A DNA stretch of 64,000 nt from Candidatus Latescibacterota bacterium (GTDB taxonomy: Bacteria > Latescibacterota > UBA2968 > GCA-2709665): assembly GCA_965205485.1 (NCBI GenBank), contig OZ242180.1, forward strand, positions 4,544,001-4,608,000, given 5' to 3'. Below are positions 58,421 to 62,628 of this stretch, one piece after another. The translations under genes and the position numbers were made by a program. The stretch's first letter is position 1. The number at the start of each line of letters is the position of its first letter. The notes under the pieces are model-generated. The model made no database searches, had not been told where the DNA came from, and worked only from the letters and a program-made list of their open reading frames with translations.

Positions 58421-58960
58421 ATGAAAACGACCCTTCAGTCGCTGGCGTTCGCCGCCTCGATATCCATTGGTGCGGCAACACTTAACGCCGCCTCAGCCCC
58501 CGATTTCAACCTCAGAAACCTTCAGGGCGAACGCGTCAACCTCAAGAATCTGCTGGCAAAGGGTCCGGTGCTTCTGGATTTCTGGGCGACCTACTGCAAA
58601 CCCTGTGTAAAGGCAATGCCCAAACTCCAGAAGATTCACGAGAAATACGGCGAATCAGGGCTCACGGTTCTTGGCGTGAACGTGGACGGTCCGCGCGGGC
58701 AGAACCGGATCAAACCCTTTCTCAGGGCGCGAAAGGTCAACTTCCCCATCGCCCTGGACTCTGACAGTGCGGTGATGCGGCGAATGCAGGTGAACGTCCT
58801 GCCGACGACTCTTCTGATCACGACTGACGGGAAGATCGCGCTCCGGCAGGTCGGATACAATTCGAAAAACGCCGATGCGTTGCTGACTGCCGTAGCGGCG
58901 CTTTTTCCCGAATCCGGCCACGACGACGAGGCGAACGCGGATGCGAGCGCGGACCAATAG
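58421..58960 (+). CDS. Exported TlpA/ResA-type thiol:disulfide oxidoreductase
   Basis: Signal peptide, APDFNL, LLDFWATYCKPC, cis-Pro motif LPTT; GAGGAG RBS. Confidence 0.92.
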   Translation: MKTTLQSLAFAASISIGAATLNAASAPDFNLRNLQGERVNLKNLLAKGPVLLDFWATYCKPCVKAMPKLQKIHEKYGESGLTVLGVNVDGPRGQNRIKPFLRARKVNFPIALDSDSAVMRRMQVNVLPTTLLITTDGKIALRQVGYNSKNADALLTAVAALFPESGHDDEANADASADQ

Positions 58961-60524
58961 CCTGACAATGCTCCTTCTGCTGGCGGCGTCGACACCGGCC
59001 GGCGCGCAGGTGACTGCATCCAGCCTGACCGAAATACAACGGGGACGCGTTCCGGGCTCGGACTCGCTGTCGGTTTCGTCACTCTATGAGCAACTCGACG
59101 TCGATTACACGCGGCACGGTCTGCAGGCCGGACTGAGGGCGGAGATCTTCAATGCATGGCGCGACCCCGCTCCCGGCTCTCCGCTTTCTCAGGTTGAATA
59201 CCAGGTCGTGCACGTGTCCCAGAAACACGTGCGCTGGACGCACGGACCCGTCGAGCTGGTTGGGGGCAACTACTACGCCATCCTGGGTCGCGGCATCACG
59301 CTCAGGGCCTTCGACCTGCCGGGAGTCATTCTGGAGAGCGGGCAATACCGGCGCCGCTATTCGCCTTCCCGGGACCTCGAGGGCGGCATGGCCACGTGGG
59401 CGGGGCCTCGGGCCGAGGCCAGAGCCCTGATCGGCCGCCCCGTACTAAGTGACATTCCCCCCGCGGTGCGGGTGGGCAATCCGCTTCGGGACCTGCCGCG
59501 GCGCGACAACTGGCTTCTTGGAGGGGAGGTTTCGCTGCGGCCAGCCAACCGGATCAAGACCGGCGTCACGGCCGTCAGCCATCACGCCTCCAGGTTTGAC
59601 TCCACGCGCACATGGTCGGGATATCTGGAACTCGACGTCACGCCTGCAATTGAAGCGTCAGGCCTTCAGGACGGGTATGCGACCGTCTACGCGGAGTACG
59701 CCGGTCTGAATGACGTGCACGTGGACGGCAGCGCGCTGTATCTTTCGGCCAATGCCGGCGTTTCCAACCTGGGATTGAGCCTGGAATACAAGGACTATGA
59801 GAATTTCGCCTTCAGTTTCAACGATCCCCCGTCCCTGGTTCGCGAACATGCGGCCGTCCTGCTCAACCGGTCCACCCATGCCCTGATTGCCGACGCGGAA
59901 ACGGGTTATCAGGTGGAAGCCACGTATTCGGTTTTCGGGCTGGGCACGCTGACGGCAAACATCAGCAAGGGGGAGAACGAACTCGCGCCCGGCTTTTCAA
60001 CGACCTTCAATGAGCGGTATCTGGGCGTGGACGTCGAACTGCCTCCGCTGGGCGGCGGGCACAGCGTGACGTCTACCGTCTTCTTCGATTGGGGAAAAGA
60101 CGAACTGAAGGGTATCGGAAAGCACCGGATCGGCGGTGTGGGGGCCGAATCCAATACACCCGGAGGGTCTGTCCTGGGTCTCGACCTGCAGGTCCGGCGC
60201 GCGGCCAGGCATCCCCGGAACGAGCCTGCGTTTTGGGATGTCTTTGCCCAGTTTTCCTATCAGCATCCCTCGGGCGTGGGCGGCGCCCTCATTCTTGATC
60301 GCACAAACGACCCGTTTGAAGTGGACGATGTCACAACGCGCGACCGGACCGAGACCGGCACGCGCACCTGGCTGGCAGTCAATCTCAACGTCGCCTTTCT
60401 CGAACGATACGAGGCCTTCGTATTCGCCGGCCGCAGGCGAGGCGGCGCCGCGTGTACATCGGGGACATGCTATCTGGTATTGCCGTTCAGTGGCCTTGAA
60501 ATGCGCCTAAAGACCTATTTCTGA
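58941..60524 (+). CDS. Predicted outer-membrane beta-barrel with C-terminal CxxxxC (DUF6029-like)
   Basis: Signal peptide ending AGA-Q, alternating amphipathic strands, terminal ...LEMRLKTYF beta-signal, motifs GNYYAILGRG and GRRRGGAACTSGTC. The family name is from recall and needs an HMM check. Confidence 0.7.
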   Translation: MRARTNSLTMLLLLAASTPAGAQVTASSLTEIQRGRVPGSDSLSVSSLYEQLDVDYTRHGLQAGLRAEIFNAWRDPAPGSPLSQVEYQVVHVSQKHVRWTHGPVELVGGNYYAILGRGITLRAFDLPGVILESGQYRRRYSPSRDLEGGMATWAGPRAEARALIGRPVLSDIPPAVRVGNPLRDLPRRDNWLLGGEVSLRPANRIKTGVTAVSHHASRFDSTRTWSGYLELDVTPAIEASGLQDGYATVYAEYAGLNDVHVDGSALYLSANAGVSNLGLSLEYKDYENFAFSFNDPPSLVREHAAVLLNRSTHALIADAETGYQVEATYSVFGLGTLTANISKGENELAPGFSTTFNERYLGVDVELPPLGGGHSVTSTVFFDWGKDELKGIGKHRIGGVGAESNTPGGSVLGLDLQVRRAARHPRNEPAFWDVFAQFSYQHPSGVGGALILDRTNDPFEVDDVTTRDRTETGTRTWLAVNLNVAFLERYEAFVFAGRRRGGAACTSGTCYLVLPFSGLEMRLKTYF

Positions 60525-60558
60525 CGCGGACCACACACTTTTTCCTAGGAGGATTGCG

Positions 60559-61539
60559 ATGATTCGATTCGTTGCATGCGTCGTGTTCCTGCTGGTCCCG
60601 GGATTCTTTCCGCCGGGTCCGGCGGAAGCCCAGAGTGTCGGTGACGCGGTACCGACGTTCTCGCTTACCGGGCTGGACGGAAAAACCTACGCCTCGGCGT
60701 CTTACAAGGGAAGTGTTCTGGCTCTCTATTACCTGGGCCATAACTGACCCACCTGCCGGGCGGCGGGTCCGTCCATAGAACAGCAGATCTGGAAGGCGTT
60801 CCAGGATGACGGCCTGGCGGTCCTGGGACTTGACATCTACAATGGCACTCAGGCTCAACTCAGGGGTTTTCAGACAGCGTCCACGATCACGTTTCCCCTG
60901 CTGCTGCAGGCAGGCAGTATCAGGGGATCTCACGGAACCCACACGTTGCTGGTCGCGGACCGGGAAGGGATCGTCCGTCACATCGGGCGCGGCGCTTCGG
61001 GTCTCAGCGCCGCGGCGGCGAACATCCGGGAACTGCTGACGCTCCCGCCGCCGACAATCAGACTTCCCAGTACGTCGCTCGACTTCGGCGAGGACGTTCC
61101 TGCCGGTGAAGCCAGGACCGTTACCCTCGTCGTAAGGAACACCGGTGGCAAAGACCTCAGCATTACGAATCTTGAGTCCGACCTCGAGGGCGTCACATTC
61201 AGCCTGACGGCACTCACGGTCGCGCCTGGCGAACGTGCAACCGTCGATATCACCTTCACGCCCGCGGAGGGAGGACCTTTCTCCGGCACGATTACCATTT
61301 CCAGCGATGACCCTGAAAACGGAAGTGTCACGGTCTCGATTTCCGGAACGGCGGTCGTCGTCCCCGTCAATCCCAAGGCCGACTTCGACAATGACGGCGA
61401 AATCGGATTCAGTGACTTCGTCGCCTTCGCCCAGGCCTTCAGTACCGACGACCCGACCTTCGACCTGAACGGAAACGGCCTGGTCGACTTCCCGGACTTT
61501 CTGGAATTCGCAAGGAACTTCGGCAAACGGGTGCCATGA
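60559..61539 (+). CDS. Probable exported selenoprotein: UxxC redoxin + Ig-like domain + dockerin/EF-hand-like tail (326 aa, Sec63)
   Basis: ORF-track pieces 60559-60747 and 60946-61539 share a frame and are separated only by TGA 60745-60747. Read-through gives YLGHN-U-PTC-RAAGPSIEQQIWKAF..VLGLD..TFPLL, a continuous redoxin fold. AGGAGG RBS; signal peptide ending AEA-Q. Confidence 0.88.
60748..60787 (+). promoter_or_regulatory. Bacterial SECIS-like hairpin, paralogue 1
   Basis: GGCG-[GGTC]-CGTC apical stem-loop, with the loop starting 19 nt after the TGA; possible lower CTGC/GCAG stem. Confidence 0.6.
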
Positions 61540-61594
61540 GTTGGCGCTGGGCGTGTACACCCGCAGGATTGTCCCTTCCCGAAGGAGGTATCAC

Positions 61595-62572
61595 ATGTAC
61601 CGACTCCTGGTTGCCGCGGTGATCATGGGCCTCTTCGCGCCTGCGTCCGCATGGGCTCAGAAGGTCGGAGATGCAGTACCGTCCTTCTCGCTCACGGGGC
61701 TGGATGACAAGACCTACATGCCCGCGAATTATGCGGGTAACGTCTTCGTGCTCTACTACCTGGGCCATAACTGAGACCTGTGCAGACAGACGGGTCCGTC
61801 TATAGAAAGACAAATCTGGAAGGCGTTCCAGGATGACGGCCTGACGGTGCTGGGACTCGACGTCTATAATGGCAGCAAATCGCAATTGCAAGCCTTTCAA
61901 AGAGTCACCGGGGTCACGTTCCCGCTTCTCCTGCGAGCCGGCCGCGCATTTCCGAGAACGCTCGGCGTTGACCATACGCTTGTCGTGGACCGCAAGGGCA
62001 CGATCCGTCACATCGGGATACGCAAACCGGCGTCAATCACCGCAACGGCCGCGCGTATCCGGGAACTGCTGAGCGTCCCGCCGCCGGCGATCAAACTTTC
62101 GGGTAGGTCACTCAACTTTGGCGAGGACGTGCCAGCCGGACTATCCAGAACGCTCACCCTGGTCGTTCACAATACCGGCGGTGTATCGCTTACGATCAGC
62201 GACATTCAATCCGATCTCGAGGAAATCTACATCAACACCACTGAGGTATCGGTCGCGGCAGGAGACAGCGCGAGGGTGGCGATCACATTCACGCCGGCCG
62301 AAACCGGTCCCTTCTCCGGCACGATTACGATTACCAGCGACGATCCGGAAAACAGAAGCATCACGGTCGCTGTTTCCGGAGCGGTCATCGTTGTCCCCGT
62401 CAATCCCCGGGCCGACTTCGACCATGACGGCAAAATCGGCTTCAGCGACTTCGTCGCCTTCGCACAGGCTTTCAACACCCGCAATGGCACCTTCGACCTG
62501 GATGGAAACGGCCTGGTTGAATTCCCGGACTTCCTGGAATTCGCCAGAAACTTCGGCAAGAGCGTGCCATGA
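61595..62572 (+). CDS. Probable exported selenoprotein, paralogue 2 (325 aa, Sec60)
   Basis: ATG 61595 after AAGGAGG. In-frame TGA 61772-61774 gives YLGHN-U-DLC-RQTGPSIERQIWKAF and continues in frame into ORF 61847-62572. Same domain layout; signal peptide ending AWA-Q. Confidence 0.88.
61775..61805 (+). promoter_or_regulatory. Bacterial SECIS-like hairpin, paralogue 2
   Basis: AGACG-[GGTC]-CGTCT perfect 5-bp stem, with the loop starting 19 nt after the TGA. Confidence 0.62.
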
Positions 62573-62596
62573 GTTCGCGCCGGGTCAATGGACGCA

Positions 62597-62628
62597 GAAA
62601 AAACACGCTGTTTCCGGCGTGTTTTTTC
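62597..62628 (+). terminator. Intrinsic terminator closing the redox operon
   Basis: GAAAAAACACGCTG-TTTC-CGGCGTGTTTTTTC. Confidence 0.8.

Follow-up and report, generated by a model that had tools for sequence, protein, structure and literature searches.

A conserved gene module of Latescibacterota as a candidate thiol-disulfide relay across the outer membrane

We analysed a window of 64,000 nucleotides from the 5.13-Mb single-contig genome of a Candidatus Latescibacterota bacterium (GCA_965205485.1, contig OZ242180.1, positions 4,544,001 to 4,608,000; genome G000), which holds an operon of four plus-strand genes: a TlpA/ResA-like reductase (58421-58960), a predicted outer-membrane barrel of family DUF6029 (58941-60524) and two redoxins that very likely contain selenocysteine (60559-61539 and 61595-62572). 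This module is real, conserved and undescribed in the literature that we searched. We judge it slightly likelier than even odds that the module forms a thiol-disulfide relay across the outer membrane, in which electrons would pass from DsbD through TlpA and a cysteine hairpin of the barrel to UxxC redoxins (U, selenocysteine) on the cell surface, and from there to external oxidised thiols or peroxides.

The operon and the cysteine hairpin of its barrel

Coordinates, translations and the fold of the terminator bear out the four-gene operon described in the original prediction. Genes 1 and 2 overlap by 20 nt, gaps of 34 nt (genes 2 and 3) and 55 nt (genes 3 and 4) follow, and the products carry, in gene order, the motifs CKPC (TlpA), CTSGTC (barrel), UPTC and UDLC (the redoxins). 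By-eye inspection of the four N-termini revealed resemblance to signal peptides ending A/A or A/Q, with no lipobox. The operon is closed by a plus-strand hairpin resembling an intrinsic terminator (62594-62630, within a folded segment 62590-62635), with a folding energy of -24.7 kcal/mol and a z-score of -5.76, none of 200 shuffles being equally stable. This hairpin is absent from the list given by the consensus scan, and Rfam yielded no match within the operon.

The 527-residue product of gene 2 matches PF19494 at 56.8 bits (gathering cut-off 27), and this match supports the family label DUF6029. Its AlphaFold2 model, built on a 44-row alignment (mean predicted local distance difference test score, pLDDT, 89; predicted template-modelling score 0.83), is a barrel with 24 strands as counted on the model, as had been anticipated, and we predict an outer-membrane beta-barrel. 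The chain ends in phenylalanine, which is also the last residue in 125 of 162 full-length homologues. No solved chain is related to it by sequence, and the top fold matches are barrels, led by the translocation domain of FimD (Z 18.9, root-mean-square deviation 4.7, 363 aligned residues), with PapC as the second match cited (Z 18.2), at 8-9% identity to these pores. Unlike the FimD and PapC ushers, which remain its best structural matches, the DUF6029 protein comprises a barrel only, with no plug or periplasmic domains and no usher family match, and no chaperone or pilin genes were seen nearby.

A fold match to Wzi further down (Z 13.2, rank 23), together with the HHpred link between DUF6029 and Wzi-like barrels near outer-membrane polysaccharide export (OPX) genes given in PMC9603273, the only paper located that names DUF6029, would agree with a polysaccharide export porin whose redox neighbours are unrelated and whose disulfide is structural. 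We find this hardly credible: the scanned neighbours include no polysaccharide-export family match, the constant neighbours are thiol proteins, and the predicted complex has TlpA filling the lumen.

The only cysteines of the window's barrel, Cys505 and Cys510, lie in a hairpin (60453-60470, plus strand; model strands 502-506 and 509-513) of the last loop, L12, which is placed on the extracellular side because it precedes the last strand. As originally predicted, the pair is conserved across homologues. Every row of two alignments, one of 44 and one of 141, has both residues, and of 202 homologues found without a motif filter, 186 have CxxxxC within their final 40 residues; among the other 16, fifteen are fragments or out-of-frame ends in which the motif is not reached. 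The motif is likewise present in Bacteroidales-type sets (120/120 and 20/20). Of 40 further loci, 39 have it, and in the remaining one the frame is disrupted. A mature protein without any other cysteine is seen for 138 of the 162 full-length homologues. A separate set of 78 close loci was left out of this count because the pattern used to find them contained both cysteines. Mean-field coupling analysis of 437 barrels (effective number 267) returned a noisy list, which was not used.

Among named sequences, those nearest to the barrel share 79-98% identity with it and bear the label Latescibacterota, the label Gemmatimonadota or no assignment. At the level of the family, one profile draws in 1660 clusters formed at 50% identity, and in one Bacteroidales-type order 111 of 201 genomes encode a DUF6029 barrel. 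A divergent second copy in genome G042 (locus L165) has two TlpA-like genes upstream, and an LVIVD-Ig (immunoglobulin-like) protein and a redoxin-dockerin fragment downstream.

Conservation of gene linkage, also part of the original prediction, was evident in the close loci, with a TlpA gene immediately upstream of the barrel in all 78. In two more distant samples, TlpA lies within two genes of the barrel in 32 of 40 and 17 of 20 loci, and a further CxxC protein stands beside the barrel in 34 of the 40, including one locus scored from a redoxin-dockerin fragment, and in 18 of the 20 when judged by motif. This third partner differs by lineage, yet it keeps a CxxC or UxxC motif and an envelope tag. 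In Bacteroidia-type loci it is an Omp28 lipoprotein or an Omp28 protein that is type IX secretion system (T9SS) cargo; in Balneolaceae, a lipoprotein redoxin together with a T9SS-tailed redoxin; and within this phylum, a UxxC redoxin, which bears a FlgD-Ig/T9SS-like tail in family f4 and a dockerin tail in the order of the window. Gene arrangement also varies: family f4 shows several gene orders with the barrel still within the cluster, the barrel lying on the strand opposite to TlpA in eight of the nine loci examined (L187-L193, L195), and at three other loci (L129, L131, L133) a tetratricopeptide repeat (TPR) gene takes the place of TlpA upstream of the barrel.

Co-occurrence follows the same pattern. 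Of 168 genomes examined in the phylum, 102 have the barrel and 104 the redoxin; 99 have both, 61 neither, three the barrel only and five the redoxin only, counts in which co-occurrence is inflated because of kinship and linkage, and some of the genomes are incomplete. Barrel and redoxin are both missing from single members of six genera, and in genus g11 the redoxin is unlinked from the barrel in all 21 genomes.

Predicted docking of TlpA and the inner half of the proposed relay

Gene 1 (58421-58960, plus strand) encodes a periplasmic TlpA/ResA-like reductase of 179 residues, an assignment that follows from its redoxin fold, its WCxxC-type site (C59-K-P-C62) and its export signal. PF00578 (87.9 bits) and PF08534 both score over cut-off, and the best PDB matches of its profile are 2m72 and ResA; the protein stays below the curated equivalog cut-offs for ResA (NF002854, 107 against 170 bits) and TlpA (NF047696, 53 against 230 bits). 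A family-specific DGPR motif accompanies the active site, and the residues C, P, C, D, P and R of CxPC and DGPR are invariant in 47 of 47 sequences.

We modelled the complex on the cysteine-containing trio of locus L045, whose barrel and TlpA are 55% and 65% identical to those of the window; the TlpA chain was scored, and the redoxin chain was co-folded without a verdict. The TlpA-barrel pair scored 0.82, and the best of three controls scored 0.00. Calibration had 116 of 157 solved complexes at or above the score mark, as against 2 of 215 mismatched pairs, counts that serve only as a rough guide for a three-chain job with custom alignments. Runs shared at least 90% of contacts, with a partner pLDDT of at least 83. 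Among 75 barrel contacts, 38 lie within five residues of a periplasmic strand end, 14 in periplasmic turns, two deeper and 21 in loops; the loop contacts fall in L3, L7 and L12, those in L12 being the three residues between the cysteines. On the TlpA side, the interface comprises residues 56-60, including Cys59, and the DGPR motif. From this contact map, the model shows TlpA entering from the periplasm and meeting the inward-folded hairpin. TlpA is thus predicted, for this orthologous pair, to dock into the barrel so that its active site lies next to the tip of the hairpin, in keeping with the suggestion that the two proteins form a complex. Interface columns of TlpA are hardly more conserved than others (0.61 versus 0.58).

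A genome search for dsbD had been suggested, and a 627-residue DsbD with all three domains is indeed present. Its N-terminal pair (ACDAYTCF) and that of the barrel (ACTSGTCY) share the CxxxxC spacing, a likeness of motif only. At the Bacteroidales-type locus L184, a DsbD-like gene (6977-9067) stands two genes downstream of the barrel, after a CxxC lipoprotein.

These elements suggest how the inner half of the relay could operate, and this half has computational support. DsbD would hand cytoplasmic electrons to the TlpA of the operon, a pairing proposed from knowledge of these families. TlpA would then enter the barrel lumen from the periplasm and attack the Cys505-Cys510 hairpin, which, in the prediction for the orthologous pair, folds inward along with loops L3 and L7.

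Probable selenocysteine redoxins and their possible display at the surface

The outer half of the proposed relay would depend on the two redoxins. Selenoprotein 1 (60559-61539, plus strand; 326 residues) consists of a signal peptide, an AhpC/TSA redoxin domain with U63-P-T-C, an Ig-like domain and a dockerin-like EF-hand pair as its tail; selenoprotein 2 (61595-62572, plus strand; 325 residues, U60-D-L-C) is a tandem paralogue with the same Ig-like domain and dockerin-like tail. The original prediction makes no mention of the Ig-like and dockerin-like domains. The two proteins are identical at 196 residues over about 302. Neither matches Omp28 (PF11551) at E 0.1.

Each gene is uninterrupted only if one TGA is read through, at 60745 and 61772, and this TGA aligns with the first catalytic cysteine of orthologues. 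Both codons are followed on the plus strand by a hairpin resembling a bacterial selenocysteine insertion sequence (SECIS): in gene 3 the UGA and hairpin span 60745-60774 (stem 60761-60774, loop GGUC), and in gene 4 they span 61772-61801 (stem 61788-61801, loop GGUC). Across 26 sequences, the short hairpin 13-27 nt 3′ of the UGA has 80% of cells paired, against 38-51% in slid controls, with five of the 26 pairing in a register shifted by one base. The Gly-Pro codons beneath it are GGT CCG in 28 of 29 selenocysteine genes versus 5 of 29 cysteine genes, GGT making up 16.7% of the glycine codons of this genome. Folding z-scores computed over whole folding windows are weak (0.04 and -2.3). The genome carries tRNA-Sec, selB and selA, and among the 54 of the 78 close loci that have a second redoxin, 26 show U only, 26 C only and two both. 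Selenocysteine incorporation at both UGA codons is therefore very likely. A pseudogene or sequencing-error reading of the TGA was rejected, because nearly all of the 150 listed matches from the phylum carry one TGA. A genome-wide scan for UGA-xx-Cys was too noisy for listing further selenoproteins.

Predicted Prx-like and Trx-like UxxC selenoproteins of marine bacteria have been reported with PF00578/PF08534 folds and bacterial SECIS-like hairpins (PMC2398784, in its available text). The redoxins of the window share the fold, the UxxC motif and the hairpin with them; the available text gives no export tag, operon or function for the marine proteins.

Orthologues bearing a T9SS tail or a long Ig stalk make it probable that the products of genes 3 and 4 are exported. 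The dockerin-like tail occupies the position of the T9SS tail in orthologues, and the two tails score 25.7 and 23.7 bits against the GC-type dockerin model NF041540 (cut-off 29). Dockerin-like EF-hand pairs occur in 94 frames of this genome, 54 of them at the C-terminus, and such frames cluster near 508-530 kb and 2672-2712 kb of G000. The genome also encodes SprA, nine PorV-family proteins over cut-off and three frames in which a cohesin is followed by a T9SS tail. These cohesin-T9SS frames could anchor the 94 dockerin-bearing frames and, taken with the PorV genes, the sequences suggest a plug-in system of surface display.

In relatives, the UxxC redoxin is held on 2-14 Ig domains in frames of up to 1695 codons. 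At five loci of genus g11 (L197, L198, L200, L201, L202), the unlinked redoxin and the dockerin are separated by a stalk of about 5-14 Ig domains that are nearly identical. A further locus (L199, 2616-6161) encodes a UxxC redoxin in one chain with a dockerin-like domain and leucine-rich repeats, ending in a HEIGH motif at the C-terminus that resembles a zinc protease site.

The barrel was also considered as a core T9SS component and was rejected, since it is not present wherever SprA is: SprA was found in 195 of 201 genomes and the barrel in 111 of the same genomes, one barrel-positive genome being without SprA. With SprA this widespread, its co-occurrence with the barrel is uninformative about T9SS dependence.

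In the outer half of the relay, the hairpin, rooted on the outer face, would pass electrons to the UxxC site of the exported redoxin, which may be tethered by its dockerin tail and reach the pore on its Ig arm. The selenoenzyme, as its fold suggests, would then reduce oxidised thiols or peroxides at the cell surface.

Several observations weigh against such a relay. At the genomic level, no TlpA gene lies upstream in 8 of 40 and 3 of 20 distant loci, the second redoxin is not adjacent in 24 of the 78 close loci, and one full-length barrel homologue (P0150) has lost both hairpin cysteines; linked genes may moreover be lost jointly, and related genomes are not independent. The redoxins of the window have no PF18962 T9SS sorting-domain match and no lipobox, and the stalks of up to 14 Ig domains that hold the unlinked redoxins of relatives fit poorly with a fixed complex. 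In the complex, a model of orthologues with custom alignments that lies outside the tool's calibration, the confident contacts include the three residues between the barrel cysteines but neither cysteine itself. The interface of 164-169 contacts resembles a stable plug rather than a shuttle returning to DsbD, and thiol cascades avoid long-lived complexes (PMC3137068, available text). Recharging a plug with so large an interface and returning a long-stalked redoxin to the pore are problems for the relay. The original interpretation is supported in part: the barrel model, the cysteine pair, the linkage, DsbD and the predicted TlpA-barrel complex speak for it, and the loci without an adjacent second redoxin speak against it.

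The TlpA-plugged barrel might instead be a mediator channel, admitting small disulfides or thiols that the hairpin reduces in the lumen, so that diffusible thiols recharge the surface redoxins free of contact between proteins. The large TlpA interface fits a resident plug, the long stalks put the redoxin far from the pore, the redoxins are unlinked in the 21 genomes of g11, and the genomic evidence is identical to that for the relay. However, the modelled lumen is occupied by L3, L7, L12 and TlpA, and many lineages have a short lipoprotein or a one-domain arm beside the barrel gene; we regard such a channel as unlikely.

A role in export or folding deserves attention in view of the usher pore that heads the fold matches. 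The barrel might translocate its neighbours (redoxin, Omp28 or PorA-like proteins), while TlpA and the hairpin would gate the pore or hold the cysteines of the cargo in reduced form. According to the available text of PMC7712824, PorA (PG2172) of Porphyromonas gingivalis reaches the surface without the T9SS translocon, and by locus tag its neighbours are Omp28 (PG2173), the uncharacterised PG2174 and the thioredoxin protein PG2175 (PMC13744359, PMC4335976, each in part). Locus L182 has the order TlpA, barrel, Omp28 match (2r2c, E 2e-16) and PorA match (6kjk, E 0.005), and the dockerin-tailed proteins have no known export route. Yet this operon has no PorA-like gene, the PorA match failed for two of three candidate neighbours, PG2174 is only a putative DUF6029 protein, many partners bear their own T9SS tail, and the modelled lumen is filled. 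A general export route is more likely for the dockerin-tailed proteins, because 94 frames of the genome carry the domain, and we consider the export reading improbable.

The same components might also run inward, with external oxidants oxidising the surface selenoprotein and the hairpin relaying a signal to TlpA and an envelope regulator. PorA is placed upstream of the PorXY-SigP pathway (PMC7712824, available text), and PorA-sized T9SS-tailed genes flank several loci. The listed neighbours of the barrel nevertheless include no sensor or regulator gene, and the chemistry would remain a relay; we hold inward sensing to be highly improbable.

Beyond the operon, the window contains an rRNA operon and two tRNAs (47356-52708). 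The gene past the terminator (62943-64000) is presumably tilS, and a gene of this kind directly follows the barrel in relatives without an adjacent redoxin.

Known systems and implications for the DUF6029 family

The outward relay finds close parallels in known systems. In the periplasmic cascade from DsbD to TlpA, ResA and CcmG, a non-thioredoxin pair of nDsbD (Cys103-Cys109) shuttles electrons between the thioredoxin-fold partners cDsbD, DsbC and CcmG (PMC3137068, available text). A non-thioredoxin cysteine pair would likewise stand between thioredoxin-fold partners here, and the nDsbD of this genome and the barrel share the CxxxxC spacing; this is a short motif likeness without homology, and in the E. 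coli nDsbD the two cysteines are separated by five residues. DsbD, moreover, spans the inner membrane by helices, whereas here the pair sits on a loop of an outer-membrane barrel.

The MtrCAB conduit places a periplasmic partner inside a large barrel and a catalytic partner outside. The module would share this three-part plan, and MtrB is among the fold matches of its barrel (Z 14.6, root-mean-square deviation 5.4, 384 aligned residues). Unlike MtrCAB, the four translations contain no CxxCH haem motif, and the barrel itself would hold the redox centre.

The P. gingivalis cluster PG2175-PG2174-Omp28-PorA has the gene order of locus L182, with PG2174 as the putative DUF6029 protein. In the same species, HBP35 is surface-attached and has cysteine-dependent thioredoxin activity (PMC2907840, available text). 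Here, in contrast, a dockerin-tailed AhpC/TSA selenoprotein takes the partner's place, and the operon has no Omp28 or PorA. No electron source and no role for a barrel appears, for the cluster or HBP35, in the available parts of PMC13744359, PMC4335976 and PMC2907840.

To our knowledge, the known electron conduits of the outer membrane all use haems. The literature searched, in which few subscription papers were covered, yielded no account of an outer-membrane relay based on thiols.

The family as a whole may have a related role. It is about an even question whether the outer membrane has its counterpart of DsbD in DUF6029, as a barrel plugged by TlpA with a hairpin that would pass electrons by thiol exchange to interchangeable surface thioredoxins across Bacteroidota, Latescibacterota and related phyla. 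With the same balance of probability, these thioredoxins would be Omp28 lipoproteins, T9SS cargo and dockerin-tethered selenoenzymes on Ig arms of up to 14 domains. The predicted interface names residues to trap or mutate, and the relay idea is therefore directly testable. HBP35 and other surface-attached thioredoxins must receive electrons from somewhere, and a thiol route across the outer membrane, if true, would supply them. It would also give the large, uncharacterised DUF6029 family a function and place selenocysteine chemistry outside the bacterial cell.

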